A DNA stretch of 64,000 nucleotides from Halorussus marinus (lineage in GTDB: Archaea; Halobacteriota; Halobacteria; Halobacteriales; Haladaptataceae), in contig NZ_SBIV01000001.1 in assembly GCF_004765795.1 (NCBI RefSeq), positions 248,001 to 312,000 on the forward strand, read 5' to 3'. Made by a program: the position numbers and the translations under genes. Each line of letters starts with the position of its first letter. Position 1 is the first letter of the stretch. Below are positions 28,242-47,244 of the stretch, one piece after another. The notes beneath the pieces are model-generated. The model worked only from the letters and a program-made list of their open reading frames with translations, was not told the DNA's origin and did no database searches.

Positions 28242-28411
28242 CTTGTTCGATACGTTGCGGATTCTTCCGTTTAAGCCTTGCTAGTCCGGGCGTTCGAGGG
28301 CGCAGAACGATCCGGACGCTGTCTTGCGGTTTCGCCGCTCACCGTGGTCGAGAATCGCATACTTATATATCCGACCGCAATTGTACTGGTCGTCCGGCGG
28401 GCCGCCCCGAC

Positions 28412-29074: not shown

Positions 29075-29118
29075 ACGCGATACAAACGGCCGGGCGCGTT
29101 TAAGGGTTCAGAAACAGG

Positions 29119-29574: not shown

Positions 29575-29662
29575 GATCTCTGGTCGGAGACACGGCGTCG
29601 GGAAACTTAACCGCCGTGCCCGTCTGGGGGCCGCCGGGCGAACTCGGCCGACCGCCGGCCGA

Positions 29663-30142: not shown

Positions 30143-30144
30143 GG

Positions 30145-31908
30145 TCAGTGGAGGAACTCCCGGACCCCGTCGGCGTCGCGGGCGTTGAGCACGTCGGCGG
30201 TCTCGGCCCACCCGCGACGGGCTGTGTGGACGCCGTACCGGACGTTTCGGTACTCGGTGGGCGTGTGGGCGTCGGTGTCGATCGCGATCGTCGCGCCCGC
30301 CTCGACGGCCCGCTTGACCGCGCTCCCCCACAGGTCGAGGCGGTGAGGGTTGCTGTTGATCTCCAGCGCGGTCTCGGCGTCGGCGGCGGCGCTCGCCACG
30401 GCCTCGACGTCGAACTCCAGCCCGGCGCGGCTGTTGAGCATGCGGCCGCTCGGATGGCCGAGCACGTCGACGTGAGGGTGTTCGACCACCGCGGTCAGCC
30501 GGTCGGTGGCGTCGCCCTCCAGCCCGCTGTGGGGCGAGGCGACGACGCAGTCGAGGTCCGCGAGCAGGTCGTCGGCGACGCTGATCGCGCCGTCGGCCTC
30601 GACGTTCGCCTCGACGCCGACGAACACCTCGACCGGGAGGTCGGCGGCCTGCTCGCGGACCTCGGCGGCCTGTTCGCGGATCGCCGCGTCGTCGAGGCCC
30701 ACGCCGCCGACCATTCCGGGGCCGGTGGCGTGGTCCGAGATACAGACGTACTCGTGGCCGAACTCGGCGGCCGCCTCGGCCATCTCCGCCACCGAGAGGT
30801 CGCCGTCGGACCACTCGGTGTGGACGTGGAGGTCCCCGCGAATCTCGTCTTCGGCGAGGAGTTCGGGGAGTTGGCCGGCCGCCGCCGCGTCGATCTCGCC
30901 GCGGTCCTCGCGGAGTTCCGGCGGGACGTACGGGAGATCGAGCACCTCGTACATCCCGGCCTCGGAGTCGCCGGCGACGCGCTCGCCGACCCGCTGGCCG
31001 GAGTCGGGGGCCGCCGGCTCGTCGGCGTCGGCCCCCTCGAGGTCAGAGACGTCGAACGCGCCGTACTCGTTGAGCTTGTATCCCCGCTCGATGGCGTAGT
31101 TGCGAAGCCGGATGTTGTGCTCCTTGCTACCGGTGAAGTACTGGAGCGCCGAGCCGAACTCCTCGGGCACCACGACCCGGAGATCGACGCGCTGGCCGTT
31201 CGAGCGAACGCTGGCCTTGTCGGTGCCGGCCTCGATGACCTCGTCGGCCCGCTCCCACTCGACGAACGCGTCGATGACCGCCGCGCGGTCCTCGCTCCCG
31301 GCCAGCACGTCGACGTCGCCGATCGTCGGCTTCCAGCGCCGGAGCGATCCCGCGAGCTCACACCGACCCGCCTCGGGGATCGACTCGACGAAGCCGAGCA
31401 CTGCGTCGCCGACCGGCCGGGCGTCCCCGAGCAGTTCGCGGCGCTGGGTCTGTCGTGCGAACGGAATCCCGTCGAGGATGTTCTGCTCGCTGGTCTCGCC
31501 GTAGCCCGACACCGTCCGGATCTCGCCTTCCCGGGCGGCGGCTTCGAGGTCGTCCAGATTCCTGACGTCGAGCGCCTCGAAGAGGTCTCCGACCGTCCGA
31601 GGGCCGACCCCTTCGACGCTGGTGAGTTCGGCCATCTCGACCGGCAACTCGGCTCGCGTCTCGTCTAACTGCTCGAAGCTCCCCGTCTCGACGGCTTCGA
31701 CGACTTTCGCCGCGATCGAGCTTCCGACGTCGGGTATCTCCTCGACCGCCTCCGGCCCGTCGGCGGCCAGTTCCTCGATCGCGGCCGGGTAGTCGCGGAT
31801 GCTCTCGGCGGCCCGCCGGTAGGACTTGGGCTTGTAGCTGACGTCCTGGGCCGCGAGCAGATCGGCGTACTCCTCCAGGAGCCCCGCGACCTCGGCGTTG
31901 CGTCTCAT
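30145..31908 (-). CDS. polX: DNA polymerase/3'-5' exonuclease PolX
   Basis: GSLRR, GDVDVL, YFTGSKEHN and PHP domain HVHTEWSDG...DTDAH. Confidence 0.95.
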   Translation of the reverse strand: MRRNAEVAGLLEEYADLLAAQDVSYKPKSYRRAAESIRDYPAAIEELAADGPEAVEEIPDVGSSIAAKVVEAVETGSFEQLDETRAELPVEMAELTSVEGVGPRTVGDLFEALDVRNLDDLEAAAREGEIRTVSGYGETSEQNILDGIPFARQTQRRELLGDARPVGDAVLGFVESIPEAGRCELAGSLRRWKPTIGDVDVLAGSEDRAAVIDAFVEWERADEVIEAGTDKASVRSNGQRVDLRVVVPEEFGSALQYFTGSKEHNIRLRNYAIERGYKLNEYGAFDVSDLEGADADEPAAPDSGQRVGERVAGDSEAGMYEVLDLPYVPPELREDRGEIDAAAAGQLPELLAEDEIRGDLHVHTEWSDGDLSVAEMAEAAAEFGHEYVCISDHATGPGMVGGVGLDDAAIREQAAEVREQAADLPVEVFVGVEANVEADGAISVADDLLADLDCVVASPHSGLEGDATDRLTAVVEHPHVDVLGHPSGRMLNSRAGLEFDVEAVASAAADAETALEINSNPHRLDLWGSAVKRAVEAGATIAIDTDAHTPTEYRNVRYGVHTARRGWAETADVLNARDADGVREFLH

Positions 31909-31944
31909 GGGCGGTCTGTCGTGTCCGGGACGTAAAGAACTGGC

Positions 31945-32382
31945 TCAGAGCCGGCCGCGCCCGCCCGCGTCCTCGCGGCCGAGCGCCTGCTTGAGAAACG
32001 ACATCCACCGCTTCTGGTCGGCGGCCTCCTGTGCGGCGGCCTCGCGTTCGAGGTCGGTCGGCCCGAGGCTCTCGAGGGCGTTTAGCGCCCGATCGATACC
32101 GACGATCGACTCGACCAGCCGCTCGCCCTCCGCGAACGTGATGTCGCCGTCCTCGATGCGCTGTTTGCGCTCGATGCGCTCGCGCCGGAGGTTTCGCTTC
32201 GCGCGCTCGACGCGGTCGCGCTCGCCGCTCGGCACCGTGTCGCGGCGCTTGATCTCGAAGACGAACTCCTGGAGCTCGACCGGCTCGCCCTGCACTTCGA
32301 TGGTCTCGGGGATGTCGGCGCCGACGGTCGCGCCCTCCCGCTCGACCCGCTCGAGTAGCTGTTTGCGCTCGAACTCTTGCAC
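31945..32382 (-). CDS. DUF5788 family protein
   Basis: ERKQLLERVEREGATVGADIP...GIDRALNAL; GTG start inferred. Confidence 0.8.
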   Translation of the reverse strand: MQEFERKQLLERVEREGATVGADIPETIEVQGEPVELQEFVFEIKRRDTVPSGERDRVERAKRNLRRERIERKQRIEDGDITFAEGERLVESIVGIDRALNALESLGPTDLEREAAAQEAADQKRWMSFLKQALGREDAGGRGRL

Positions 32383-32437
32383 GACTCTCACTCGGGGTGC
32401 CAGCGACAAAAATTCGCCGGGCGCGGCTCGGGCGCGG

Positions 32438-33598
32438 TCACTCCCCGTCGGACGATCCGTCCCCGCCGAGGTCGATCCGGTCGTGGATGTGGCCCTCGCG
32501 CTCGCGCAAGTGGCCGGGCGTGCGGCCGTTCGCGACGGCGAGCGCCTCCGCGACGATGCTGTGGGCGATCTGGTACGGCGACCCGCCGCCGAGATCGAGC
32601 CCGATCGGCGTGTAGAGTGCGTCGAGGTCCGACTCGTCGACCGACGCCGGGAACTCCTCGGCCATCCGCTCGAACCGTTCGTGAGGGCCCATGAGACCAA
32701 TGTACGGCGCCGGCGAGTCAAGCAGCGCCTCGACGGTCAGCTGGTCGTCGACGAAGTTGTGGGTCATCACGACCGCGTGGGTGCGCTCGTCGAGGTCGAG
32801 CGCCTCGTCGATGCTCCCGGGCGAGGTGGTCACCGTCCGGTCGGCCGCCGGGAATCGCGACTCGACGTCGACGCCCCCGCGGAAGCCGACGACCGTGACC
32901 CGGAAGTCGTTTTTCGCCGCCAGCTCGGTCACCGGCCCCACGTCGTGGCCCGTCCCGAAGATCACGAGGTCCGACGGCGCCGCGAGCCCGTCGACGAACA
33001 GTTCGAGCGCGCCCTCACGGACCCCGAATGTGTCCGACCGGCCGCGCTCGGCGAGTTCGGCTCCCGGGGTCGCGAGCTCTCCGGTCGGCCACTCGTCGGC
33101 CGCCGAGCCGTCCGGTAGGACGAGTCGGTCCTCGTCGGGATAGTAGTACGCCCGGTCGCCGCGCCGGAAGCGGTCGCTCTCGTCGGACAGGACGGTCACG
33201 ATCGCGACGTCCCGTCCGGCGGCGAACGCCTCGACCGCCGGCCGGTAGGTCTCGTCGAGCGGTTCGAGCAACACGTCGATGACGCCGTTGCAGCCGACGC
33301 CGAGCCCCCAGACGTCCTCCTCGTCGTCTTCCATCAGGTCGTAGGTGACGAGTTCGGGTCGCCCGGACTCACGGATGCGGTCGGCGGCCGCGAGGAGGTC
33401 GTTTTCGAGACAGCCCGCGGTGATCGAGCCGACGCCGGTTCCGTCGTCGTCGAGGAGCATCTTCGCCCCCGGGCGCCGGTAGGCGTTGCCCTCGACGTCG
33501 ACGACGGTCGCGAGGACGTCGAGGCCGTCGGCGTCGAGTCTGTCGGCGACCTGCTGTACGACTTCGGTCTCGGGAACGCTCCAGTTGCTCTCGGACAT
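32438..33598 (-). CDS. XdhC/CoxI-family molybdenum-cofactor chaperone
   Basis: GNAYRRPGAKM, GCLE, GVGCNG, VMTHNF, YIGLMG, PIGLDLGG. Confidence 0.9.
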   Translation of the reverse strand: MSESNWSVPETEVVQQVADRLDADGLDVLATVVDVEGNAYRRPGAKMLLDDDGTGVGSITAGCLENDLLAAADRIRESGRPELVTYDLMEDDEEDVWGLGVGCNGVIDVLLEPLDETYRPAVEAFAAGRDVAIVTVLSDESDRFRRGDRAYYYPDEDRLVLPDGSAADEWPTGELATPGAELAERGRSDTFGVREGALELFVDGLAAPSDLVIFGTGHDVGPVTELAAKNDFRVTVVGFRGGVDVESRFPAADRTVTTSPGSIDEALDLDERTHAVVMTHNFVDDQLTVEALLDSPAPYIGLMGPHERFERMAEEFPASVDESDLDALYTPIGLDLGGGSPYQIAHSIVAEALAVANGRTPGHLREREGHIHDRIDLGGDGSSDGE

Positions 33599-33599
33599 G

Positions 33600-34418
33600 T
33601 TATGGGGTGGATCGCAGTCGAATCGTCGATGGCGGTTCGCGGGCGGCGTACACCTTCCGGACGCCGCGGTCGTGGAGGGCCGTGCCGCAGTCGCCGTCCG
33701 CGACCGCGGCCCGGACGCGGTCGGGCGCCGCGACGTGCGCGCCCGCGATCACGTCGGCACCGGCGTCGAACAGCGACCCCGGGAGCCCGGACGCGGTCGC
33801 GCCGACTACCACCACCGCGGCGTCGTCGGGCGCGGCCGCGAGATACCTCTCGAGGCCGCCGTACACGAGCGTCGAGCCGGTGATAAAGACCACCTCGGCG
33901 CCCGCCATCGCCGCCGACGTCTCCTCGGGATCGAAGGTCCGGAGGCTGACGCCCTCGGGCGTCGAGACGTCGCCGACCGGCGTCCGCTCGACGACCCGGA
34001 CCGCCACGTCGTCGAACTTCCGGAACGCGGGGCGAAACAGCCCGACCGTGACGACCGTCTCGACCGACTCGTCGAGCAACGCCATCGGATCGCCGGTCCG
34101 CCAGTCGACGTGCGGGGCCGAGAGGGCGTTCAGCGTCGCGACGCCCGCGGCCAGCGCGACGCTGTCGGGCGGGTCGTCGCCGGCCCCGGCCGACCGGACC
34201 GGTGCGAGAAGCGACTCGACGGTCTCGCCGAGTTCGGGGACCTCGCCCGGCGGGCGGTGAGCGAGCCCGGCCGACGGCTCCGCGCCCGATCCGGTCTCGT
34301 CGGTGACCTCGACGAGCACCGCCGACTCGCCGACGGTGACCCCGTCGAGGCGACTGCCCGCGAGGTGTCCCCGCCGATCGAGTTCGTCGGATATCGCCGA
34401 CAGCAGGCGGTGGGTCAC
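33600..34418 (-). CDS. DUF364 Rossmann-like protein
   Basis: GVATLNALS, VGLFRP, ITGSTLV, VVGAT. Confidence 0.8.
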   Translation of the reverse strand: MTHRLLSAISDELDRRGHLAGSRLDGVTVGESAVLVEVTDETGSGAEPSAGLAHRPPGEVPELGETVESLLAPVRSAGAGDDPPDSVALAAGVATLNALSAPHVDWRTGDPMALLDESVETVVTVGLFRPAFRKFDDVAVRVVERTPVGDVSTPEGVSLRTFDPEETSAAMAGAEVVFITGSTLVYGGLERYLAAAPDDAAVVVVGATASGLPGSLFDAGADVIAGAHVAAPDRVRAAVADGDCGTALHDRGVRKVYAAREPPSTIRLRSTP

Positions 34419-35782
34419 GCCGAGTCACCCCCGTCGGCGGCGCTCGCGGTCCGTCGCGGATCGTGCTGGTACCCGACCGACCCCCCGAGCCCGCGGGTCT
34501 CGATCTGGCGGGCGGCCTCGGCGAGGTCGTCGGCCTCCGCGAAGCCGAACAGGCCCTCGACGTACGGCGCGACCGTCGACATTCCCCGGGAGGACGGCTC
34601 GAACGCCGGCGAGACCGCGAGGGGGTTGAGCCAGACCACGGCGCTCGCCCGGTCGGCGAGCCAGGTGATCCCCGCTTCGAGGGTTTCGGGGTCGCCGACG
34701 TCGAGCCCGTCGCTCACCACCACGACGACCGTCCGGCGGTCGACCGCGTTCGGGGCCGACCGCCGGAGCGTCTCGAAGGCGTGGCCGATCCGGGTCCCGC
34801 CGCCCCACTCGACGCTCGCGGCCCGCAACGCGCCGGCGGGGTCGCCGTCCGCGCGTTCGACGGCGTCGGTCGCCTCCACGAGGTCGGTGTCGAACAGGAA
34901 GACCCGGGCGTCGAGCGCGCGACTCGCCGTCCGCTCGGCGAGCGCGAGCAGTGCGCTCCGGTCGATCGTGTCCAGCACCGAGCCGCTGACGTCGACGAGC
35001 AGACAGCACCGGAGCTCGCTCGGCGTCGGCTCGGTCCGGGGGAGCTCGACCGGGACGCCGCCGGTCTCCAGACTCGCCCGGAGCGCGCCCCGGGCGTCGA
35101 CCGCCGGCCCCGCGGGGGCACGACGACGACGGCGCCCGGGCAGGGTCGCGAGCGCGTCGACGAACCTATCGACGGCCGCGCGGCCGGCCTCGGACGCCGC
35201 GGGCGTCGCGGCGTCGACGAGTTCGCTCCCGCCGACCGCGCTGTACCGTCTGGCGTCGGCGTCCCCGGAGGCGGCCGCCCGGTCGCCCGAGGCCCGCCGA
35301 CGCTCGGTCGGGATTCGGACCTCGACCCGTCCGTCGCCGTCGCCGTCCATCTCGGGCGGGTCGGCGTCGGGGAGCAGGTCGGGATCGTCGGCCCCGCCGT
35401 CGGCCGACTCGCGGTCGCCGTCGGCGTCGTCGCCGCCCGCGGCCGTCGGGCCGCGCTCGGCGGTCCCGATCCGGTCGAGACCCGTCCGGAGCCGGTGCCA
35501 GAACTCGGGGAACGCCTCGTCGAACGCCGCCGCGTCGGCCGCCGCCGAGAGGAGCGTCGCGCGGAGCGCGGCCTCGACCCGACGCTCGTCGCCGAGCCCG
35601 ACCCGCGCGAGCGCTCGCGCGGCGTCTTGGGACGCCGACGCTGGCACGTCGACGTTCTCGCGGCGCAGGTCCCGAATCAGCCGGAACAGCTCGGTCAGGA
35701 CGTGCGTGCGTGCCGCCCGGAAGTCCGGGACGCTCTCCTCGCCCGCACGTCGCTCGATGCCCGAGTCGGGATCGCCGGCCAT
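34415..35782 (-). CDS. coxE: CoxE-like VWA domain protein
   Basis: MIDAS DVSGS, WGGGTRIG, VSDGLD, VWLNP. Confidence 0.88.
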   Translation of the reverse strand: MAGDPDSGIERRAGEESVPDFRAARTHVLTELFRLIRDLRRENVDVPASASQDAARALARVGLGDERRVEAALRATLLSAAADAAAFDEAFPEFWHRLRTGLDRIGTAERGPTAAGGDDADGDRESADGGADDPDLLPDADPPEMDGDGDGRVEVRIPTERRRASGDRAAASGDADARRYSAVGGSELVDAATPAASEAGRAAVDRFVDALATLPGRRRRRAPAGPAVDARGALRASLETGGVPVELPRTEPTPSELRCCLLVDVSGSVLDTIDRSALLALAERTASRALDARVFLFDTDLVEATDAVERADGDPAGALRAASVEWGGGTRIGHAFETLRRSAPNAVDRRTVVVVVSDGLDVGDPETLEAGITWLADRASAVVWLNPLAVSPAFEPSSRGMSTVAPYVEGLFGFAEADDLAEAARQIETRGLGGSVGYQHDPRRTASAADGGDSA

Positions 35783-35785
35783 GGC

Positions 35786-36748
35786 TCACTCGATCCCGTC
35801 TGCGGCGTTCGCCGCGGCGTCGTGCAGTCGGTCGAGCAGTTCGGCGTCGACCCGGCTCACGTCCTCGGCTTCCTTCAGCAGACAGCCGATGGTGCGTTCG
35901 ATCTCGTCGGTCGACAGCGGCTCGTCGGACTCCTCGTGGCGGAGTCGGGCGACCGCCCGCGCCCAGTCGAGCGTCTCGGCGACGCCCGGTTGCTTGAGAA
36001 ACGACTCCTCGCGGAGCGCCGCGACCACGCCACACACCTCGGCGGCGACGGCCGCGTCGAGTTCGGGCACCTTCCGGCGGACGATCTCGTGTTCGGTCTC
36101 GAACGACGGCGGTTCGACGTGGAGATAGAGACACCGCCGCTTGAGCGCGTCGCTCAGCCCGCGCGTCCGGTTCGACGTGAGCACCACGATCGGCGGCCGG
36201 TCGGCGCTCACCGTGCCGTACTCGGGGATCGACACCTGAAAGTCCGACAGCACCTCCAGCAAGAACGCCTCGAACGCCTCGTCGGCCCGGTCGATCTCGT
36301 CGATCAGCAAGACCGGCGGCCGATCGCCGTCGGTCCGGAGCGCGCGCAACAGCGGCCGTTCGAGGAGATACTCCTCGCCGAACACCGACGAGCCCCGCGA
36401 GCCGTCGCTCGGCGAGCCCGAGCGGCCCGCGACCGACCCCTCCTCGCCCTGCACGGCGAGCAGTTGCTTGGTGTAGTTCCACTCGTAGAGGGCGTTCTCG
36501 GCGGTCAGTCCCTCGTAGCACTGCAGGCGGATCAGCTCGGTGTCGAACCCCGCCGCGAGAGTCTTGCCGAGTTCGGTCTTGCCGCTCCCGGGCGGTCCCT
36601 CGACCAACAGCGGTTGGCCGAGCTGGAGCGCGAGCGAGACGGTCGTCACGGTGCGGTCGTCGGCGACGTAGTCGGTCCGCTCGAACCGCTCGCGGAGGTC
36701 GGCCTCGGTCACCGAGTCGAAGGCTCGGGCGGCCGTCCGATCGCTCAC
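35786..36748 (-). CDS. coxD: CoxD-like MoxR AAA+ ATPase
   Basis: GPPGSGKT, RLQCYEG, YEWNY, DEIDR, DALKRRC; GTG overlaps the upstream stop. Confidence 0.9.
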   Translation of the reverse strand: MSDRTAARAFDSVTEADLRERFERTDYVADDRTVTTVSLALQLGQPLLVEGPPGSGKTELGKTLAAGFDTELIRLQCYEGLTAENALYEWNYTKQLLAVQGEEGSVAGRSGSPSDGSRGSSVFGEEYLLERPLLRALRTDGDRPPVLLIDEIDRADEAFEAFLLEVLSDFQVSIPEYGTVSADRPPIVVLTSNRTRGLSDALKRRCLYLHVEPPSFETEHEIVRRKVPELDAAVAAEVCGVVAALREESFLKQPGVAETLDWARAVARLRHEESDEPLSTDEIERTIGCLLKEAEDVSRVDAELLDRLHDAAANAADGIE

Positions 36749-37851
36749 GCGTTCACCTCCCGGTCGAGGTACGACGAGGGGTCGGACTCGAACGAGTCCG
36801 CACACCCTCGACAGCAGAAGTGGTACGTCCGCCCGTCGTGGTCGACCGACGCCGCGGCCGCCGCCGGATCGACCGCCATCCCGCAGACTGGGTCGACCGC
36901 GGTCTCCTCGGCCGACTCGGTCGGCGGGGCGTCGGCCTCGTCGTCACCGGCCGCCGGGTCGTCGGCCGCGTTCGACGGGGCGGCCTCGCCCTCGGCCGGG
37001 CTCGCCTGCGAACGCACGTCGACGATCTCAGCGAGCAGGCTCGCGGCGAGTTCGGCCGGCGTGCGGGCGCCGATGTCGACGCCCGCGGGGTTCGTGACCG
37101 CCTCGCGGACCGTCTCGGGGTCGCGGTCGAGCAGGCCGGCCGCCCGCTCGATCTCCTCGTCGGCGCGCTCGTCGCTCGCGATCAGCCCGACGTACGGCGC
37201 GTCGGCCGCGACGCCGGCCGCGATGGCCCGGGCGTCGTACTTGCCCATCGAGGCCGCGACGACGAGGGGCGCTCGCCCGGCGGCGTCGGCGATCTCGTCG
37301 GGCTCGACGGTCCCCAACACCTCGGTGCGATCTGGCACGTCGGCGACGTCCCCGTCCGCGGCGACGAGCGTCACGTCGACCGCGAGTTCGTCGGCGAGCC
37401 GCGCGAGCGATCGGGCGACCGGCGAGTCGCCGACCACGATCAGCTCGGTCCGGGGCGCCACGGGTTCGAGGTAGATTTCGAGCACGCCCTCGCTGTGACA
37501 CCGCATCGGGAACGCCTCGAGGCCCGGACGGTCGATCGACTCCGGATCGGGGGCGATCCCGATCAGCCGCGGGGCGCCCGCCTCGATGGTCTCGCGGCCC
37601 TCCCGGGCCACCACCGACTGGGCGCAGGCCGCCCCGCCGACCCAGCCGTGGAGTTCGCCGTCGGGGGTCACCACCGCGCGGTCGCCGACGTTCGAGGACA
37701 CCGGCGGCTCGCGCCGGACCACCGTGGCGCGGGCGTACGGCTCCCGGCGGCGCTGTAGTTCGTCTTCGAGCGTCGATACGTCGCCGTCGTCGATCGCGCT
37801 CCGGTCGGTCGCGTCGGGCGCTCGGCCGTGTGGCGTCTCGTCGTGTGACAT
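36745..37851 (-). CDS. coxF: CoxF/XdhC-family protein with C-terminal YHS domain
   Basis: GWVGGAAC, CHSEG, YVGLIAS, PAGVDIGA; C-terminal DPVCGM...YHFCCRGC. Confidence 0.85.
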   Translation of the reverse strand: MSHDETPHGRAPDATDRSAIDDGDVSTLEDELQRRREPYARATVVRREPPVSSNVGDRAVVTPDGELHGWVGGAACAQSVVAREGRETIEAGAPRLIGIAPDPESIDRPGLEAFPMRCHSEGVLEIYLEPVAPRTELIVVGDSPVARSLARLADELAVDVTLVAADGDVADVPDRTEVLGTVEPDEIADAAGRAPLVVAASMGKYDARAIAAGVAADAPYVGLIASDERADEEIERAAGLLDRDPETVREAVTNPAGVDIGARTPAELAASLLAEIVDVRSQASPAEGEAAPSNAADDPAAGDDEADAPPTESAEETAVDPVCGMAVDPAAAAASVDHDGRTYHFCCRGCADSFESDPSSYLDREVNA

Positions 37852-37921
37852 CGTGGTGTAGTTTCACAGGGGTTCGCGCGGGGCGTCGGTCGCCCCGCCG
37901 TCGGTGCGTCGGCGTCGTCGA

Positions 37922-40417
37922 TCAGTCGTCGGCGTGCTCGCCGTCCTCGACGCTGAACTCGACGTTCCGGGCGGGCTGGTGGCTCAGCCCGACCTCGTCG
38001 AGCTTCTCCCAGACCACGTCGGGTGTCATCGGCATCTCGACGTGGCTGACCCCGGCCTCGGACATCGCGTCGACGACCGCGTTGACGATGGCCGGCGGCG
38101 AGCCGACCGTCGGCGACTCGCCGACGCCCTTCGCCCCGATCGGGTGATGGGGCGAGGGCGTGACGGTGTGGCCCGTCTCGAAGTTCGGGATCTCGTTTGC
38201 GGTCGGAAGCAGGTAGTTCATGAAGTCGCCGCCGGTGACGTTGCCGTTGTCGTCGTAGGTGACGTGCTCCATCATCGCGGTGCCGATCCCCTGTGCGAGT
38301 CCGCCGTGGATCTGGCCCTCGATGATCATGGGGTTGATGCGGTTGCCACAGTCGTCGACCGCGACGAACTTCTCGAAGTCGACCTCGCCGGTCTCCCGAT
38401 CGATCTCGACGACGACGATGTACGACCCGAACGGGTAGGTCATCTCGGGCGGGTCGTAGTAGTTCGTCGCCTCCAGTCCGGGCTCCTCGCCGCCGGGGTG
38501 GTTCATGTAGGCGCCGGCCGCGATCTCCGTGATGGTGATCGAGCGGTCGGGCGCGCCGGCGACGTGGAACTCGCCGGACTCGCGGTCCCACTCGATGTCT
38601 TCTTCGGCGGCCTCCAGTTCGTTGGCCGCGATGGACTTGGCCTTGTCCCGGACCTTGCGGGCGGCGACGGCCGCCGCCGCGCCCGCGACCGGAGTCGACC
38701 GCGAGCCGTACGTGCCCAGCCCGTAGGGTTCGGTGTCTGTGTCGCCGTGCTCGACCGTGATGTCGTCGACGTCCATCCCGAGTTCCTCGGCGACGATCTG
38801 GGCGAACGTCGTCTCGTGGCCCTGTCCCTGCGTCTGGACGCCCACGCGGAGGACGGCGTTGCCGGTCGGGTTCACCCGGAGGTCCGCGGAGTCGAACATC
38901 TCGATGCCCGCGATGTCACACTGCTTGCCCGGTCCCGCGCCGACGACCTCGGTGAACGAGGAGATGCCGATTCCGATCAGTTTGTCGGCGTCCTCTTCGA
39001 GGCGGCGCTGTTGTTCCTCGCGGTAGTGCTCGTAGTCGGCCATCTCGAGGGCCTTGTCGAGGGCCTTCTCGTAGTCGCCCGAGTCGTAGTTCCACCCGGT
39101 CGCAGACTCGTAGGGGAACGCCTCGGACGGAATGAAGTTCTTCCGCCGGATCTCGGCCGGATCGACGTCGAGTTCGTCGGCGAGCACCTTCACCATGCGC
39201 TCGATGAGGTACACCGCCTCCGTGACCCGGAACGAACACCGATAGGCGACCCCGCCGGGCGCCGTGTTGGTGAACGCCGCCGTCAGCGAGCCGTGGGCCG
39301 CCTCGATGTCGTACGAGCCGGTGAAGATGTTGAAGAACCCCGCGGGGAACTTCGAGGGCTGGGCCGCGGCGTTGTACGCGCCGTGGTTGGCGAGCACGTC
39401 GACTTTCACGCCCTTGATCTCGCCGTCCTCGGTGGCCGCGAGTTCGCCCGTCATGTCGTAGTCGCGGGCGAACCCGGTGGTCTGGATGTTCTCCGAGCGC
39501 TCCTCGACCCACTTGACGGGCTCTTCGAGCACGTACGACGCCGCGGCGGCGACGACGTACCCGGGGTAGATCGGCACCTTGTTGCCGAACCCGCCCCCGA
39601 CGTCCGGGCTCACGATCCGGACCTTGTGCTCGGGGATGCCCGACACCTGCGAGAACAGGGTCCGGTGGGCGTGGGGCGCCTGGGAGGTCATGTGGACGGT
39701 CATCTTGTCCTTGCCGGGGTCCCAGTCGGCGACAGCCCCGCAGGTCTCGATCGGCGCGGGGTGGAGCCGCTGGTAGAGCATGTCCTCCTCGACGGTGACG
39801 TCGGCTTCCTCGAACACCCGGTCGGTCTCCTCCTTGTCGCCGGTCTCCCAGTCGAAGATGTGGTTGTCCTCCTGATCGTCCAGTTCGTCCCGGACGAGCG
39901 GGGCGTCGTCTTCGAGCGCCTCCTCGGCGTCGACGACGGGGTCTAGCACGTCGTACTCGACTTCGACCTTCTGGGCGCCGTCCTTCGCGGCGTAGCGGTC
40001 CTCGGCGATCACCGCCGCGACCTCCTGGGACTGGAACTTCACCTTCTCGTTGACCAGCACGTCCTGGGTGTCGTCCATCAGCGTCGGCATCGTCGCCAGG
40101 TCGTGGGCCAGCAGGTCCTCGGCGGTCAGTACCGCGACGACCTCGTCCATCGCCTCGGCCCGCGAGCCGTCGATCTCCTCGACTCTGGCGTGGGCGTGCG
40201 GGCTCCGGACGATCTCGCAGTGGAGCATGCCGGGCTTTTTGATGTCGTCGACGTAGTCGCCCCGGCCGGTGATGAACCGCTTGTCCTCCTTGCGGTTTAC
40301 CTCCTCGCCCATGCCGCCGCGGCCGTGCCCGCAGTGTTTCTCGGGCTCGGGCCCGTCGTCTTCGGGGTGCTGGTACTCGGTGTCGGCGTCGGGCGCGCGT
40401 TCGCGATCGGAGCTCAC
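37922..40417 (-). CDS. coxL: Aerobic carbon monoxide dehydrogenase large subunit, form I
   Basis: AYRCSFR active-site loop (39227-39247), GGGFGNK, QGQGHET, AKGVGE. Confidence 0.95.
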
Positions 40418-41079
40418 GTCTCCTCACCTCCGAGGTACTCGCGCTCGAACTGATCGCCTGCGTGGTCCCCGCCGGACGCGTCGGGACCGCCACAGCAGTC
40501 TTCGAGCCCGCAGAACGTGTCGGCCTCGCCGCCGGCGTCGGCCGAACGCTCGCCGTCGGCGGCCGCGACCGCCCCGCCGTCGGTGGCGGCCCGGGCGTCG
40601 AGTTCGTCTGCGGCGTACTCGATCGAGCGCACGATGTTCTGATAGCCCGTACACCGACAGAGGTTGCCGCTGATCGCCTCCCGGATCTCGTCTTCTTCCG
40701 GCTCGGGGTTCTCGTCCAACAGCGCCTTGCCGGCCATCAGCATCCCCGGCGTACAGTACCCACACTGTAGGCCGTGTTCCTCCCTGAAGCCTTCCTGAAG
40801 CGGGTGGAGGTCGTCGTCGGCCGCGGGCAGGTCCTCCATCCCCTCGACGGTGAGGATCTCGGCGCCGTCGGCCTGCGTCGCGAACATGAGACAGGACTTG
40901 ATCGGTTCGCCGTCTTTCAACACCGTACAGGCGCCGCAGTTACCGGTGTCGCAACCGATGTGGGTGCCCGTCAGGTCCAGGTCCTCGCGGATCGCGTGGA
41001 CCAGCAGTCGTCGGGGCTCGACCTCGACGGTGTGTTCGGTGCCGTTGACCGTCAGCGTGATCTCGGTTTCGTCAGTCAT
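40414..41079 (-). CDS. coxS: CO dehydrogenase small (2x[2Fe-2S]) subunit
   Basis: [26 protein letters not shown]. Confidence 0.94.
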
Positions 41080-41963
41080 TGTGTCACCTTCCGTCTGACC
41101 GCGCCGGCTCGCTCCGCGGCGTCGCCGAGCGCGCGCTGTGCGAGCACGTCTACCATCCGTTCTTTGTAGTCGGCCCCGCCGTGCTCGTCGGACTCGGGGT
41201 TCGACGCTTCTGCGGCGAGCTCGCCGGCGGTCTCGAACAGGTCGGCGCTCGGGCGCTCGCCTTCGAGGTGTTGCTCGGCGTCGGTCGCCTGCGCGTTCGT
41301 GATGTCGACCGCCGTCATGCCGATCCCGGCGGTCTCGATCCGACCGTCGTCGTCGAGCACGAGCCGGGCGCCGACCCCGGCCATCGCGTAGTCGCCGGTC
41401 TTTCGCTTGAGCTTGTGATACGCGCTCCCCTCGCGGGGCTCGGGCGTCGGGATCCGGACCTCGGTGATCAGTTCGTCCTCGCCGAGGGTCGTGTCGTACG
41501 GCAGGAGGAAGAACTCGTCGGCCGGGATGACGCGCTCGCCGTCCGGGCCCTCCGCGACGATCTCGCCCTCGTGGGCGAGCAGGACGCTTCCCCAGTCGCC
41601 TTTCGGGTCGGCTTGGGCGACCGACCCCGCCACCGTCCCGCGATTCCTGATCTGCGGGTCGGCGACGAGCGGCGCCGTGTCGGCGAAGCTCCCGTACCGC
41701 TCGTCGATCAGGTCCGAGTCCTCGACGTCGGCGTGACGAGCCAGCGCCCCGAGCTTCAGATAGCCGTCCTCCTCCCGGAGGTAGTCGAGCGAGTCGATGC
41801 CGTTGATGTCGACGACGACGTCGGGGTTCGCCAGCCGGAACCGGAGCATCGGCACGAGGCTCTGGCCGCCGGCGAGGATCGTCGGATCGTCGAGGCTCTC
41901 TAGCAGGCTCGTCGCCTCGTTTGTCGTCGTCGGCTCGTAGTGTTCGAACGGTGCGGATTTCAT
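41076..41963 (-). CDS. coxM: CO dehydrogenase medium (FAD) subunit
   Basis: [26 protein letters not shown]. Confidence 0.93.
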
Positions 41964-42556
41964 CAGAACATCCCCCGAATCCTGTCGGTGACGCCGGAGT
42001 CGGTCTCCTCGACGTCGGTCATCTCCGACTCGATGGCGCCGAAGAAGTTGTTCACGATCTTGTCGGCGACCGGATTGATGACCCGACCGCCGAGCTGGGC
42101 GATCCGCCCGGAGATGTCGGCCTCGGTCCACCACTCGATCCGGGAGCCGTCGCCGTCTTCGAGCTCGTGGATTCGCATCCCCGAGTCCATGCTGAAACCG
42201 CTGCTGCTGGCCGATCCCGAGCCCGTGGCGGTCATCTCGAACGTCTCGTCGTCGCGGTCTTCGATAGTGACCGTCGTCTCGAACTTCGGTTTCACGCTCC
42301 CGACGCCGACCTGCATCAGCGCCGCGTAGTCCCGGCCGGCCTCGAACGCCCGGTCGGCGACGGCGTCGGCGTCCGCCTCGGGGAGAGTCTCGACGCCCTC
42401 CTCGGCCTCGTAGCTGTCCCACTCGAAGTCGTCGTCCATCGGCGTGATGTACTGACACCCCTTCAGCGCGTCCCGGACCGCGATCGGGTCCGAGAGGACG
42501 ACCCACGCCTTGTCCGGCGGTACGTCTTCGAGCTCGAACTCGCCCTCGAACTCCAT
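41963..42556 (-). CDS. coxG: CoxG (SRPBCC fold) protein
   Basis: LSDP...[20 protein letters not shown]; ggagg SD upstream; stop overlaps the coxM start. Confidence 0.85.
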
Positions 42557-42599
42557 CAGCGATCGCCTCCGTTCGGTCGCGTCGATCGATCGCTCGACA

Positions 42600-42690
42600 C
42601 CGTCATCTTTTATACCCCGCCACTATGAGCATACTATTACCACGCCATATGCTATGCCGTACCACCGTAATAAAGTTACTGAAAAACGAG
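42600..42690. promoter_or_regulatory. AT-rich divergent promoter region for the cox operon and moeA-mocA
   Basis: TATA-like ctttttatac at about 42607-42615; agcata/tatgct inverted repeat; taccac direct repeats 22 bp apart. Confidence 0.55.
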
Positions 42691-42730
42691 GATAGATACC
42701 CGACGGGACCGCGACTGGAGGGGACGAAGC

Positions 42731-43948
42731 GTGACTGACGGCCACGATCACGGCGAGATGCGCACTTGGGAGGCGGGCGCGGCGGCGGTCGCCGATCTCC
42801 GGGAACGACGACTCGATCGCCGCGGGATCGAGACGGTCGGCCTCGCCGAGATCGCCGGACGGGACCTCGCCGAACCGATCGACGCGCCCGCGGACGTGCC
42901 GGCTCGGAGTCACGCGACGATGGACGGCTACGCGTTCGACGCCGCGGAGGAGTACCCGTACGACCTCGTCGACGAGCCGGTGTTCCCGGACGACGAACCG
43001 CCGTCGCTGGCCGCCGGCGAGGCGGTCCGGATCTTCACGGGGGCGCCGCTCCCGCCGTCGGCGAACGCGGTGCTGAAACAGGAGGAAGCGACCGTCGAGG
43101 ACGGCCGGCTGTCGGGCTCGCCCACGACGCCCGGCACCTACGTCTACGAGCGGGCGAGCAACGTCACCGAAGGCGAGCGGCTGTTCGAGGCCGGCGAACG
43201 GCTCGGCCCGAAAGACGCGCTGTTGCTCGGGGACCTCGGCATCGACGAGGTACCCGTCCGCGAGCCCCTCTCGGTCGGCCTGCTGGCGACCGGGACCGAG
43301 ATCCACGAGGGCAAACACCGGGATCTGGACTCGCCGATGCTCGCCGGACTCGTCCGGGCGTGGGGCCACGAGGCGACCTACGAGGGGACGGTCCCCGACG
43401 ACTTCGAGCGCGTTCGGGACCGAATCGCCGAGGTCGCGGCCGACCACGACGTGGTGATGACGACCGGCGGGACGAGCGTCGGCGAGGCCGACTACGTCGT
43501 CCGCGCGCTTGCGGACGTGGGCGAGGTGTGCTTTCACCGCGTCCGGCTCCGACCCGGCAAGCCGATCGCGGTCGCAGAACTCCCCGACGCCGTCGCGTTC
43601 GCCGTCCCGGGCAAGCCGGTGGGCGCCCACGCGGTCACGTCGCTGGTCGCCCGGCCGTACTTCACCGGGAGTACGAGCCTCCCCAGCGTCGGCGCGACGA
43701 TGGCGGCCGACGTCGGCATCTCGGTTCCGGGGTTCGCGTACGCCGTGCCGGTCACTCTCGACGACGGGACGGCGACGCCGCTCGGACACGCCGACTCGTC
43801 GCTCGCCGTCTACGAGGACACGTTCGACCCGAGCGTCCTCTCGTCGAGCACGCGCGCGACCCGGGCCGACGGCTTCGTCCTCACCGAGGACGCGCTCGAC
43901 GCGGGCGAACGGGTCGAGGTCGTCCCGTACCCGGTCGTCGAGCGATGA
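42731..43948 (+). CDS. moeA: Molybdopterin molybdenumtransferase MoeA
   Basis: ATMDGYA, IFTGAPLP, ATGTEI, TTGGTSVG, RPGKP, PGKP. Confidence 0.92.
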   Translation: MTDGHDHGEMRTWEAGAAAVADLRERRLDRRGIETVGLAEIAGRDLAEPIDAPADVPARSHATMDGYAFDAAEEYPYDLVDEPVFPDDEPPSLAAGEAVRIFTGAPLPPSANAVLKQEEATVEDGRLSGSPTTPGTYVYERASNVTEGERLFEAGERLGPKDALLLGDLGIDEVPVREPLSVGLLATGTEIHEGKHRDLDSPMLAGLVRAWGHEATYEGTVPDDFERVRDRIAEVAADHDVVMTTGGTSVGEADYVVRALADVGEVCFHRVRLRPGKPIAVAELPDAVAFAVPGKPVGAHAVTSLVARPYFTGSTSLPSVGATMAADVGISVPGFAYAVPVTLDDGTATPLGHADSSLAVYEDTFDPSVLSSSTRATRADGFVLTEDALDAGERVEVVPYPVVER

Positions 43949-44622
43949 CCGACGCGGGCTCGGGGGACCGTCGGCTCCCGCTGGTCGAACCCCCGTTCGA
44001 GGACCCGGCAGACGCCGACGCCCCCGACTCGCCCCGGGTCGGCGGCGTCGTCCTCGCAGGGGGGACGAGCAGTCGGTACGGCGACCGGAACAAACTGCTG
44101 GCGACCGTCGACGGCGACCCGATCGTCGCCCGCGCGGCGGCCACGCTCGTCGAGGCGGAGCTCGACCCGGTGGTTGTCGTCACCGGCCACGAACGAGACC
44201 GAGTCCGGGCCGCCGTCTCGGACGTCCCGGTCGAGACGGTTCACAACCCGGCCTACGAGGACGGGCAGGCGTCGTCGGTCCGGACCGGCGTGGCGGCGAT
44301 CCGCGAGCGGGCCGACGTCGACGCCGCAGTCGTCGCGCTGGGCGACATGCCGTTCGTCGATCCGGCGACGGTCCGGACGCTCGCGGCCGCGTACGCCGCT
44401 GGCGCGGGCGATGCGCTCGCGGCCGCGTACCGCGGCGAACGCGGAAATCCGGTGCTGTTCGACCGACGGTTCTTCGATCCGCTGACCGACGTCACGGGCG
44501 ATGTCGGGGGTCGAGAGATCCTACTAGAGGGCGAGGCGAGCGCGCTCGTGGCCGTCGAGGACCCCGGCGTTCGCCGGGACGTCGACGAACCGACCGACCT
44601 CGCGGGCGACGACGTCGCGTGA
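43945..44622 (+). CDS. mocA: Molybdenum cofactor cytidylyltransferase (MocA-like)
   Basis: LAGGTSSRYG, NKLL, GQASS, LGDMP, RGNPVLF, GDVGGR, DVD; context of an MCD-dependent enzyme. Confidence 0.85.
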   Translation: MTDAGSGDRRLPLVEPPFEDPADADAPDSPRVGGVVLAGGTSSRYGDRNKLLATVDGDPIVARAAATLVEAELDPVVVVTGHERDRVRAAVSDVPVETVHNPAYEDGQASSVRTGVAAIRERADVDAAVVALGDMPFVDPATVRTLAAAYAAGAGDALAAAYRGERGNPVLFDRRFFDPLTDVTGDVGGREILLEGEASALVAVEDPGVRRDVDEPTDLAGDDVA

Positions 44623-44634
44623 GCGACCGGTCGC

Positions 44635-44790
44635 TCACTCGTCGCGCTCGGCTTTCCGGACGACGATGTTCCCGCTCTCGACGTGCCACTCGACGCGGTC
44701 GCCGACACCGACGTCGAGGAAGTTCCGGACCGGCTTCGGCACCGTCGTGAGGTTCTTCTCCGAGACCTTGGTGTCGGTGAGGTTACCCAT
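44635..44790 (-). CDS. AbrB/MazE/SpoVT family DNA-binding protein
   Basis: TKVSEKNLTTVPKPVRNFLDVGVGDRVEW swapped-hairpin signature. Confidence 0.85.
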   Translation of the reverse strand: MGNLTDTKVSEKNLTTVPKPVRNFLDVGVGDRVEWHVESGNIVVRKAERDE

Positions 44791-44907
44791 CAGGGCCACG
44801 TTCGATCGTAGTGTACACATAGCTTTCGCTATGTCAGCTCCTAGTTTCGGGGACTCCGCTCCGGCGCCCGCCGGGACGGCTTCGGCGGGTGAACGTAACA
44901 AGCGGGC

Positions 44908-45201
44908 TCAGACCGCCGAGTTCCACCGGTGGGCGCCGCCGTCCGACGCCCGCTCGAAATCGAGGTCGAAGCGGTCGGATTCGAGCAACACCGGCCCCGG
45001 GACGTACGCGTCCTCGGCGCCGTCGACCGCCCGCAGGAGTCGGCGGTCGCACATCTTCGCCAGTACGTCCCGGACCGTCCGCTCGCGGCCCGCCACCAAA
45101 TTGGCTTCCTCGACCACGCTCTCGACGTCGACGCGCCCTTCCAACATCGCGAGCCGGATCGCGGACACCCACGCCGGCTCGCGCTTCGTCTCCCGACACA
45201 T
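44908..45201 (-). CDS. Small hypothetical protein, probably winged-helix
   Basis: ERTVRDVLAKM...AYVPGP HTH-like pattern; TATA-like cttatac upstream on the minus strand. Confidence 0.55.
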   Translation of the reverse strand: MCRETKREPAWVSAIRLAMLEGRVDVESVVEEANLVAGRERTVRDVLAKMCDRRLLRAVDGAEDAYVPGPVLLESDRFDLDFERASDGGAHRWNSAV

Positions 45202-45428
45202 CGGTATGTTACGTCACAGCGGTCGATCGTATAAGTGTTTACGGCGCCGGACCCCGAGCCAGTCGAACGGTGGGCGATCCGGAGGCCGTCGAGTCAGGCG
45301 GGACTTGGCCACCGTCGAGCGATTTCCGCACGCGGGCTCGGTCCCGCGCGGTCGGCCGGGAGGCGCCGTCGCGGCCGGAACCCTCAAGACCCAAATCCCT
45401 TTCAAGACCCGAACCAAAGACTCCCCCA

Positions 45429-46358
45429 ATGGCGAAGTGTGACGCGTGCGGCGAGCACGAAAACATGCCGTACGAGTGTCGGCGCTGTGGCGGCACCTAC
45501 TGTTCGGACCATCGCCTCCCCGAGAGCCACGACTGCCCCGGGCTCAACGAATGGAACGACCCGAAGGGCGTGTTCGACAGCGGGTTCGACGACAGCGTGA
45601 ACGACCCCGGCGGGTCGGGCGGCGTCGCCGACCGCATCGGCATCGACACCGGTCCCGGCGGGCCGCTGGGCTACTTCCGCGGGAACATGACCTACGTGTT
45701 CCTCGCGGCGATGGTGCTGTGGTTCCCCGTCCAGTACGTGCTCCCGCCGCTGGTCGGGGTGGCGGTCGGCTCTCAGACGTGGTACGACGTCTTCACCCTC
45801 AACACCGAGAACGTGTTCTACGTCTGGACGTGGCTCACCTCGACGTTCTCCCACGGCGGCGTCGGCCACCTGTTCGTGAACGGGCTGGTGCTTTACTTCT
45901 TCGGCCCGGTCGTCGAGCGCCGACTCGGGAGCCGGAAGTTCGCCGCGCTGTTCCTGATCTCGGGCGCGGCGGCGGGGCTCGCACAGGTCGGGGTGTCGCT
46001 CGCGATGGGCGACACCGCGGCGGTGCTGGGCGCCAGCGGCGCGATCGCGGCCGTCATGGGCGTGCTCACCGTTCTGAACCCCAACCTCACGATATACCTC
46101 TACTTCGTCATCCCGATGCCGCTCTGGCTGGCGACCACGCTGTTCGTCGGCTACTCGGCGTTCGTGAGCGCGGCCGGCGGCATCGGCGCCGGCGGGGTCG
46201 CGCAGGTGGCCCACCTCGCGGGCGTCGCGATCGGGCTCGCCTACGGCGCGAAGCTCAAACGCGAGGGCGAGCGCGCCCCACAGGAGATCCAGCTCGGCGG
46301 TGGCGGCGGCCCCGGTCGCGGCCCCGGCGGTCCGGGCGGTCCCGGCGGTCGGTTCTAA
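45429..46358 (+). CDS. Rhomboid protease with N-terminal AN1-type Zn finger
   Basis: CDACG...CRRCG...HRLPESHDC; GASG catalytic Ser; AHLAG His. Confidence 0.93.
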   Translation: MAKCDACGEHENMPYECRRCGGTYCSDHRLPESHDCPGLNEWNDPKGVFDSGFDDSVNDPGGSGGVADRIGIDTGPGGPLGYFRGNMTYVFLAAMVLWFPVQYVLPPLVGVAVGSQTWYDVFTLNTENVFYVWTWLTSTFSHGGVGHLFVNGLVLYFFGPVVERRLGSRKFAALFLISGAAAGLAQVGVSLAMGDTAAVLGASGAIAAVMGVLTVLNPNLTIYLYFVIPMPLWLATTLFVGYSAFVSAAGGIGAGGVAQVAHLAGVAIGLAYGAKLKREGERAPQEIQLGGGGGPGRGPGGPGGPGGRF

Positions 46359-46383
46359 CTACTCTCGGCTCCTCGGCTCTCTC

Positions 46384-47244
46384 ATGACGCCAGTCAACCC
46401 CGAGTTCGTCCCCGACGCGTCGCTCTCCCGGGAGGCGATGGAACGGCTCCAGCGCGAGATCGCCGACGCCGCGACGTTCGCCGACGACCTCGCGTTCGCC
46501 CCGGCGGCGATCGCGGCCGAGACCACCGCGCCCGACCAGACCGAACTCGCCGACGCGGGCGAGAACAGGGACGACGGCGCGGGCGAGTCCCGCGACGCCT
46601 CCCCGGATCCGCCCGTCGTCGCCGGCGTCGATCAGGCGTTCGTCGACGATCGGGCGGTGAGCGCGATCGTCGCCTCGAGGGGCGGGGAGGTGATCGAACG
46701 GGTCCACGCGGTCGCGCCAACCGAACTCCCCTACATCCCGGGACTGCTCTCGTTTCGGGAGGGCGGGGCGATCCTCGCGGCCTTCGAGGCGCTGTCGGTC
46801 GAACCGGACCTCGCGGTTGTCGACGGGAGCGGGCGCATCCACTTCCGGGAGGCCGGCATCGCCACCCACGTCGGCGTGACCCTCGATCTGCCCGCGGTCG
46901 GAGTCGCGAAGAGCCTGCTCTGTGGCCGACCGCGCGAACCCCTCGACGACCCTCTCCCGGAGGGCCGGCGAGTCCCGATCGAGGCCGACGACAGCGTCAC
47001 CGCGCCCCGGGGAACGATCATCGGCCACGCCTACCAGTCCCGACAGTACCCGAACCCGGAGACGCGCCACGTCAACCCCCTGTACGTCAGCCCGGGCCAC
47101 CGCGTCGGCGCCGAGACGGCGACCGACCTCGTCGCGGCGCTCTGTGCGGGCTACAAGCTCCCCGAGCCCACCCGCCGGGCCGACGCCTACGCCGACGAGG
47201 TGAAAGCGTCGGTCCGCGCGGAGATCGAAAGCGAGGAGAGTTAA
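46384..47244 (+). CDS. nfi: Endonuclease V
   Basis: GVD, PYIPGLLSFRE, VDGSGRIH, GVAKS, SPGHR, PEPTRRAD. Confidence 0.95.
   Translation: MTPVNPEFVPDASLSREAMERLQREIADAATFADDLAFAPAAIAAETTAPDQTELADAGENRDDGAGESRDASPDPPVVAGVDQAFVDDRAVSAIVASRGGEVIERVHAVAPTELPYIPGLLSFREGGAILAAFEALSVEPDLAVVDGSGRIHFREAGIATHVGVTLDLPAVGVAKSLLCGRPREPLDDPLPEGRRVPIEADDSVTAPRGTIIGHAYQSRQYPNPETRHVNPLYVSPGHRVGAETATDLVAALCAGYKLPEPTRRADAYADEVKASVRAEIESEES

Follow-up and report, generated by a model that had tools for sequence, protein, structure and literature searches.

We have analyzed a stretch of 64,000 nucleotides from the genome of Halorussus marinus (contig NZ_SBIV01000001.1, positions 248,001 to 312,000), referred to below as the window, with coordinates counted from its first nucleotide. 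It contains what is very probably an intact form I molybdenum-copper (Mo-Cu) carbon monoxide (CO) dehydrogenase cluster of a known haloarchaeal clade, which likely oxidizes CO to supply supplementary energy. A first-pass annotation of the same DNA had described eleven genes, in the order coxG-coxM-coxS-coxL-coxF(YHS)-coxD-coxE-DUF364-xdhC with a divergent moeA-mocA pair, and had assigned them to a haloarchaeon. Using a listing of the open reading frames (ORFs) together with Pfam and NCBIfam we located all eleven at the positions and on the strands given there, so that this gene set was borne out, and the haloarchaeal host was supported as well. Two features were absent from that description, a twelfth conserved gene (44908-45201, minus strand) and the nature of the whole cluster as a genomic island.

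The large subunit belongs to form I

The gene coxL (37922-40417, minus strand) codes for the large subunit of the enzyme. The active site loop AYRCSFR, from which the assignment to form I had been made, is found at residues 391-397 of the protein (window 39227-39247) and includes the cysteine that serves as Cu ligand. Against the NCBIfam equivalog TIGR02416 the protein scored 1212.2 bits, for a cut-off of 991.15, while the other models of the xanthine oxidase family stayed below their own cut-offs. Its best relatives of solved structure are all Mo-Cu CO dehydrogenases (8uem, 1093.6 bits; 1ffu, 1000.4 bits; 1n5w, 956.1 bits), and the next structure family, quinoline oxidoreductase, follows at 451.5 bits. 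The genome carries a single form I coxL. We also built a tree with FastTree from 89 CoxL rows (the window, 40 haloarchaeal, 47 bacterial form I and one form II outgroup), with Shimodaira-Hasegawa-like supports and no bootstrap. The window falls inside one haloarchaeal clade of 41 rows with a support of 99, so the phylogenetic check proposed for the form I assignment places it with form I and apart from the single form II outgroup row. The rest of the enzyme is in agreement with this picture. CoxS carries both [2Fe-2S] cysteine patterns, CoxM carries the flavin adenine dinucleotide (FAD) domain, and the genes for the maturation of the Cu-S-Mo site, coxD (AAA+), coxE (VWA_CoxE) and coxF (XdhC family), are located directly downstream of coxL.

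A standard cassette among haloarchaea

We searched a class sample of 401 haloarchaeal species genomes, which are related and not independent of each other, so that all the co-occurrence counts given below are descriptive only. Form I coxL was found above the cut-off in 42 of them, with scores between 1196 and 1246 bits, and the next best match had 764 bits; this gap separates form I from everything else cleanly. Form I is thus held by a minority of haloarchaea, which supports the first-pass annotation on this point. In order to compare the gene neighborhoods, about 19 kb around coxL were taken from 40 of the 41 other holders (G362 was excluded, its coxL being near a contig end) and the proteins of the window were mapped on them by tblastn. 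The CoxL of the window is 78-96% identical to the other 40 haloarchaeal proteins compared. The order of all eleven genes was found in 31 of the 40 loci, the run coxG-M-S-L-F in 39, DUF364 also in 39, and the second xdhC in 34. The pair coxD-coxE comes after coxF in 38 loci. In the two exceptions (L040 from G191 and L067 from G298) coxF is followed directly by DUF364, with no coxD or coxE within the 19 kb locus. The pair moeA-mocA was absent from eight loci and mocA alone from one more (L059). In the first-pass annotation the leading position of coxG and the choice of accessory genes had been presented as departures from the bacterial model. That they are, but within the clade they are not unusual: since 31 of the 40 loci hold the eleven genes arranged as in the window, coxG in first position and the presence of DUF364 are the normal condition of this clade. 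Among the named homologues of CoxF are those of Haloferax namakaokahaiae and Halobaculum sp. WSA2, and the nearest named cluster is from Halostella.

Haloarchaeal form I Mo-Cu CO dehydrogenases are reportedly the subject of studies by King in 2015 and by McDuff and coworkers in 2016, the latter of which is said to describe CO oxidation by Haloferax namakaokahaiae. A 'halobacterial' clade is one of the five clades of form I CoxL recognized by Cordero 2019 (PMC6794299), where atmospheric CO uptake is cited for four haloarchaeal genera. Halobaculum sp. WSA2 oxidizes CO (Myers & King 2017, PMC5743682), and a 'Haloarchaeal group' is listed, with the synteny of coxG described as variable, by Kropp 2025 (PMC12202499). 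The enzyme clade, the uptake of CO by haloarchaea and the variable position of coxG are therefore already published. For Halorussus we found no report of CO oxidation in the literature searched. What the window holds is a typical representative of an enzyme clade known from the literature, and for this genus it has apparently gone unreported.

Gene content and layout

Upstream of coxL on the minus strand are coxG (41963-42556), an SRPBCC protein (PF06240, 66.3 bits) without transmembrane helix; coxM (41076-41963), the FAD subunit (FAD_binding_5, 158.6 bits; CO_deh_flav_C, 69 bits); and coxS (40414-41079), the subunit with two [2Fe-2S] centers and an acidic C-terminal extension, matching Fer2_2 and Fer2. 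Downstream of coxL, and on the same strand, comes coxF (36745-37851), in which the XdhC N-terminal and Rossmann domains (PF02625, 45.6 bits; PF13478, 68.2 bits) are fused to a C-terminal YHS/TRASH domain (36769-36894; PF04945, 50.2 bits). It is followed by coxD (35786-36805), a MoxR-like AAA+ ATPase with AAA_5 and AAA matches (NF047784 at 266 bits, below its cut-off), and by coxE (34415-35782), a VWA protein (PF05762, VWA_CoxE, 141.9 bits). The run ends with the clade-specific accessory gene DUF364 (33600-34418; PF04016, 80.9 bits), annotated with putative metal chelation, and with a second, CoxI-like XdhC-family chaperone of the molybdenum cofactor (32438-33598; Pfam XdhC_CoxI, 78 bits, and XdhC_C, 104 bits). 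Divergent from these, on the plus strand, are moeA (42731-43948), similar to molybdopterin molybdotransferases (NF007960 at 199 bits, below the cut-off; TIGR00177 at 87.8 bits, above it), and a mocA-like cytidylyltransferase gene (43945-44622) of the MobA-like nucleoside triphosphate transferase type (PF12804, NTP_transf_3, 135.8 bits), which stays under the cut-off of TIGR03310 (134.2 against 186.45 bits). The twelfth gene, back on the minus strand, codes for a predicted winged-helix protein of 97 residues, a candidate cox regulator, and is conserved beside haloarchaeal clusters.

The intergenic gaps on the minus strand measure 1, -4, 3, 70, -4, -4 and -1 nt. The one of 70 nt lies between coxL and coxF. 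Each of the others is either an overlap of 1-4 nt or a spacing of 1-3 nt; the start codon ATG of coxM, for example, overlaps the stop of coxG. The earlier description of mostly overlapping or abutting genes was therefore right. At the junction between coxF and coxD the distance is -61 nt, which an alternative start of coxD would change to 0 nt. Judging from the alignments of coxD homologues, which begin at residues 14-29 of the longer frame, the true start is likely the GTG at 36748 that abuts the coxF stop. The open frames are uninterrupted in all twelve genes. In every product of the cluster the acidic residues outnumber the basic ones (166 D+E against 65 K+R in CoxL), in agreement with the acidic subunits that had been described.

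Proposed mechanism and physiology

By extension from the characterized bacterial systems, completion of the molybdopterin cytosine dinucleotide cofactor would fall to MoeA and the MocA-like enzyme, and its insertion to the stand-alone XdhC. CoxD would then power the sulfuration of Mo, and CoxE together with CoxF would deliver Cu(I), the YHS domain of CoxF being the likely copper site (for the roles of CoxD, CoxE and CoxF see Pelzmann 2014, PMC4240915). CoxG would move menaquinone from the membrane to the FAD site and back, a role described by Kropp 2025 (PMC12202499), here without a membrane anchor. CO would be oxidized to CO2 and the electrons would enter the respiratory chain as supplementary energy. 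The first-pass annotation had raised the possibility that CO is used at atmospheric levels. The rest of the genome has been inspected with this in mind. It is rated 99.97% complete and no large subunit of RuBisCO was found in it, in a search that did detect the RuBisCO-bearing controls. This is in line with the remark that the window holds no carbon fixation genes, although only RuBisCO was sought, and it fits carboxydovory. There are four genes for subunit I of heme-copper oxidases. A NarG-like gene of about 1040 residues is located on contig 8. Such a genome content would suit an aerobic carboxydovore, the use of CO being something that we infer from the genes.

Several points weigh against this reading. 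The matches of the MocA-like protein, MoeA, CoxD and XdhC are below the NCBIfam equivalog cut-offs, and the exact roles assigned to them are therefore based on Pfam domains and on the surrounding genes. The search for CO2 fixation covered RuBisCO alone. The most delicate point is CoxG. The protein of Mycobacterium smegmatis has a C-terminal membrane helix, and the model proposed for it stresses a lysine-rich face (Kropp 2025, PMC12202499). The CoxG of the window has no C-terminal membrane helix, its maximal mean Kyte-Doolittle hydropathy over 19 residues being 0.65, and such a hydrophobic stretch is absent from all 39 haloarchaeal CoxG proteins (maximum over 19 residues of 1.27 or less). For comparison, a Gemmatimonadota CoxG with an anchor reaches 3.13. 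It is also strongly acidic, with 47 D+E against 15 K+R. Being anchor-less and acidic, against the lysine-rich face published, CoxG makes the quinone shuttle the least secure step of the scheme. The protein could nevertheless act as a quinone shuttle, although it lacks the membrane helix, a defining feature of the characterized one.

We have weighed three other explanations of what the enzyme does. It is extremely unlikely that it is a xanthine oxidase-family dehydrogenase acting on another substrate (a form II 'CoxL', or an enzyme for aldehydes, purines or N-heterocycles) and not on CO. Paralogues of this family are certainly abundant in haloarchaea, as matches at E<=1e-100 occur in 124 of the 401 genomes and only 42 are above the form I cut-off; the congeners have coxL-like clusters with xdhC and mocA; and for the 'cox' genes of Haloferax volcanii xanthine dehydrogenase figures among the candidate matches (Pfeiffer & Dyall-Smith 2021, PMC8305020). 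Against this, the CoxL of the window is 221 bits over the form I cut-off, with a gap of 430 bits to the next class of matches, matches a solved CO-oxidizing enzyme with 1094 bits and has AYRCSFR and not AYRGAGR in the loop. The operon, besides, includes CoxD, CoxE and CoxF, needed only for a Cu-S-Mo site. That CO oxidation feeds autotrophic growth (carboxydotrophy) instead of providing supplementary energy is very unlikely too. Some holders of form I are carboxydotrophs (Cordero 2019, PMC6794299), but the haloarchaeal CO oxidizers cited in that same paper are classed as carboxydovores, and the missing RuBisCO large subunit in a nearly complete genome points in the same direction. Finally, the electrons of CO could go mainly to nitrate or perchlorate and not to oxygen, as in Halobaculum sp. 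WSA2, which has a homologous cluster and couples CO oxidation to both (Myers & King 2017, PMC5743682). The NarG-like gene would speak for it, but its match is far under the family cut-off (217 against 1084 bits) and four heme-copper oxidase genes are present. We consider this option rather improbable as the main route, and the two routes are in any case mutually compatible. CO oxidation for supplementary energy by an aerobic carboxydovore remains our preferred explanation.

Outside the cluster, the window also codes for a protein of 810 residues (53423-55855, plus strand) with a DUF5059 domain (719 bits), which carries at its C-terminus a copper domain similar to plastocyanin/azurin.

The cluster as a genomic island

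We compared positions 27001-47000 of the window with five genomes of the same genus and refined the limits by blastn. The similarity to the congeners (73-81%) stops at 32420-32430 on the side of polX and resumes at 45387-45389 on the side of a rhomboid gene. The cox island delimited by this DNA comparison has therefore about 12.95 kb (32431-45387, limits +/-10 nt). In three of the five congeners the two flanks are adjacent and in the same orientation, separated by only 1.7 kb (G209), 1.2 kb (G335) and 1.1 kb (G188); in G176 the site is rearranged and in G193 the flanks are on different contigs. Form I coxL, DUF364 and the gene of 97 residues are absent from all six other genomes of the genus in the class sample. 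On the other hand, positions 32460-44835 are collinear with a genome of another family (G037, family f7) at 83.1% DNA identity over 12.6 kb, and with a further genome, G152, at 83.3%. The proteins tell the same story, as CoxL is 96% identical to that of f7 and CoxM and CoxG 89-90%, while for PolX the identity is 66-67% with f7 and 75-80% with the congeners, and for DnaK 88-89% and 90-94%, respectively. The named homologues nearest to PolX (74-79%) point to Halorussus as the likely genus of the host. In the CoxL tree a sub-clade of 13 rows mixes five families. Because of the 83% DNA identity to clusters of another family, we consider it likely that the island came by lateral transfer, the donor being a different haloarchaeal family.

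There is also evidence that weakens this conclusion. The grouping of the window with the f7 CoxL has a support of only 74. No repeats similar to attachment (att) sites were found at the ends of the island, just chance matches of 8-9 nt, and no integrase, transposase or other mobility gene was found among the neighbors scanned. In addition, an ORF similar to S-adenosylmethionine (SAM) methyltransferases is found at the site in congeners, which makes repeated loss or replacement conceivable. This ORF is located between polX and the rhomboid gene in the gaps of G209 (L071:2803-4506) and G188 (L073:2659-3763); none was found in the gap of G335 (L072). As it occupies the position of the island, the site has been replaced rather than simply filled. 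The alternative to be considered is that the genus possessed the cluster from the beginning and that the other species have lost it. It would find support in the lack of mobility genes, tRNA target and flanking repeats at the island, in the different gene found there in congeners, an indication that the site has been remodelled, and in the small sample of the genus, just seven genomes. Yet six of six other congeners are without form I coxL, DUF364 and the gene of 97 residues, and no remnants of them were found. The DNA of the island resembles that of another family (83%) more than the flanks resemble the congeners (73-81%), a CoxL at 96% identity to f7 coexists with a PolX at 66-67%, and the mixture of five families in the CoxL sub-clade also goes against vertical descent. 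We consider ancestral presence followed by loss improbable and keep lateral gain as the likely origin.

The CoxF-YHS fusion

Bacterial CoxF is an XdhC-family protein that has been proposed as the supplier of copper (Pelzmann 2014, PMC4240915). With the CoxF of the window we obtained 13074 matches at E<=0.001 among 1.84 billion representatives. Of 150 aligned rows (the query and 149 of the best 150 matches), 133 retain the three cysteines of the YHS domain, and C323, C346 and C350 are each at least 90% conserved in this alignment. An alignment of eight XdhC-YHS rows led to 80 bacterial loci. A coxL with AYRCSFR was found beside the XdhC-YHS gene in 63 of them and the YHS region was covered in 75, contig ends explaining most of the others. 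The hosts include Chloroflexota, Acidobacteriota, Methylomirabilota, Gemmatimonadota, SAR324 and others, among them Thermogemmatispora carboxidivorans PM5. We had considered the fusion as a haloarchaeal novelty, and its frequency beside bacterial form I coxL (63 of 80 loci) rules this out. No paper treating the YHS domain and XdhC together was found in the literature searched, so that the fusion, though widespread, may have passed undiscussed. Its wide presence beside coxL gives independent genomic support to the proposal that CoxF handles copper. A metagenome bin labelled Nitrosotalea (L090:4857-5789 and neighbors) has coxM-coxS-coxL(AYRCSFR)-coxF(YHS), which means that the host is unusual or that the binning is wrong.

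Clade-specific parts

The C-terminal extension of CoxS ends in a tail with three cysteines (residues 190-199, window 40483-40512). The ending CG.E.CCGGP was found in 31 of 40 haloarchaeal CoxS proteins, and 37 of the 40 tails have at least three cysteines. Among the 58 bacterial CoxS examined none had a cysteine in the tail. DUF364 is also typical of the group. It is single-copy in the genome and was found in 41 of the 42 form I genomes against 10 of the other 359, and in only one of the 80 bacterial loci. Together with the CoxS tail it would handle metal, both being predicted accessory parts. In Methanococcus maripaludis a DUF364 gene is part of the modABC operon and shows cofitness with nifH (bioRxiv 10.1101/2024.03.05.583561), a context that by analogy hints at molybdate handling. 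In the literature searched we found nothing relevant linking DUF364 to CO beyond this methanogen mod operon paper. One genome without form I coxL (G172) has DUF364 about 4 kb away from a form II-like coxL (G172:C1:3123024-3125312 and 3129467-3129880), from which DUF364 may also serve other xanthine oxidase-family enzymes.

The gene of 97 residues (44908-45201) was found in 38 of the 40 haloarchaeal loci and in none of the 80 bacterial ones. By genomes, it is present in 41 of the 42 with form I and in four of the 359 others, of which only G245 has a full-length and strong match. Copies in genomes without form I coxL are located at G245:C21:494070-494351, G199:C3:132667-132861 and G130:C1:679192-679347, one being full-length, one having a TAA stop and one being a half-length match; such copies may be remnants of lost cassettes. 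The protein has 170 homologues among 5.8 billion clusters, the named ones all haloarchaeal and annotated as 'hypothetical' or, in a few cases, as MarR family, and no Pfam family matched it up to E = 10. Its AlphaFold2 model has a mean predicted local distance difference test score (pLDDT) of 79.4, above 90 for residues 11-70, with a helix-helix-helix-strand-strand topology like that of a winged helix. The top Foldseek matches of the model are winged-helix domains, the best at an E of 5.4e-3 and none at E<=0.001. Cys2, His90 and Trp92 are invariant across the 38 rows of the alignment, from which L057 was left out for having a stop codon in the matched stretch.

This putative winged-helix protein would regulate the conserved promoter of coxG. 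In the spacer between coxG and moeA we found a promoter/operator-like block (42607-42674, minus strand) with TTTATTA at 42668-42674, GTAATAGTATGCTCATAG at 42623-42640 and a predicted TATA element, TATAAAAG, at 42607-42614. The arrangement TTTATT ... GTGGTAATAGTATGC(A/T)CATAGTG ... TTATAAAAGATGAC is kept in an alignment of the window with 19 haloarchaeal loci, and the 18-mer core of the block occurs only once in the genome. All these elements could be put together in a single, tentative picture, in which the cassette is a self-contained and laterally mobile module of 13 kb with a private regulator of 97 residues and an archaeal-specific route of metal delivery made of the CoxS tail and DUF364. 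The regulator, with its invariant Cys2, His90 and Trp92, would bind the genome-unique operator before coxG and would turn the operon on upon CO or starvation. We regard this as a possibility that is more doubtful than probable. If true, it would mean three parts (the regulator, the CoxS tail and DUF364) without earlier description.

Significance and comparison with known systems

Halorussus is hereby added to the haloarchaeal genera with form I CO dehydrogenase, which supports the published view that trace gas oxidation is patchy yet widespread in hypersaline habitats. The new content is modest and consists of features of the whole clade, and the by-products of the comparison are worth more than the cluster as such. 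From them a standard haloarchaeal cassette of twelve genes can be defined, which likely moves between families as a block. Its clade-specific parts (the putative winged-helix gene, the CoxS tail and DUF364) and the conserved operator are handles to study the regulation of archaeal CO oxidation and the maturation of the Mo-Cu site.

In comparison with the model system of Oligotropha (Afipia) carboxidovorans, coxBCMSLDEFGHIK (1n5w; Pelzmann 2014, PMC4240915), CoxM, S, L, D, E, F and G are common to both, with 956 bits between the window CoxL and 1n5w, and the extra XdhC-family copy of the window is comparable to CoxI. The differences are the position of coxG, first and not after coxF, the order F-D-E instead of D-E-F, and the YHS domain carried by the CoxF of the window. 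No counterparts of coxB, coxC, coxH or coxK were seen, while DUF364, moeA, mocA, the gene of 97 residues and the cysteine tail of CoxS are additions of the window. The Mo-CO dehydrogenase of M. smegmatis (8uem; Kropp 2025, PMC12202499) is the best solved match, with its 1093.6 bits extending over residues 15-806. CoxG belongs to the same Pfam family in both, that of the window being anchor-less and very acidic, and the active site loop is AYRCSFR in the window and AYACSFR in M. smegmatis. In the bacterial coxMSL clusters with XdhC-YHS, such as that of T. carboxidivorans PM5, the XdhC-YHS gene comes directly after coxL as it does here, and three loci (L075, L077 and L119) share with the window the order coxMSL-F-D-E-xdhC. 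Their CoxL proteins, however, are just 53-64% identical to that of the window and coxG is not first in these clusters. The closest system is the haloarchaeal form I clade itself (Cordero 2019; Myers & King 2017), with which the window shares the gene order and the AYRCSFR loop, its host being the only holder of the cluster among the seven sampled species of the genus.

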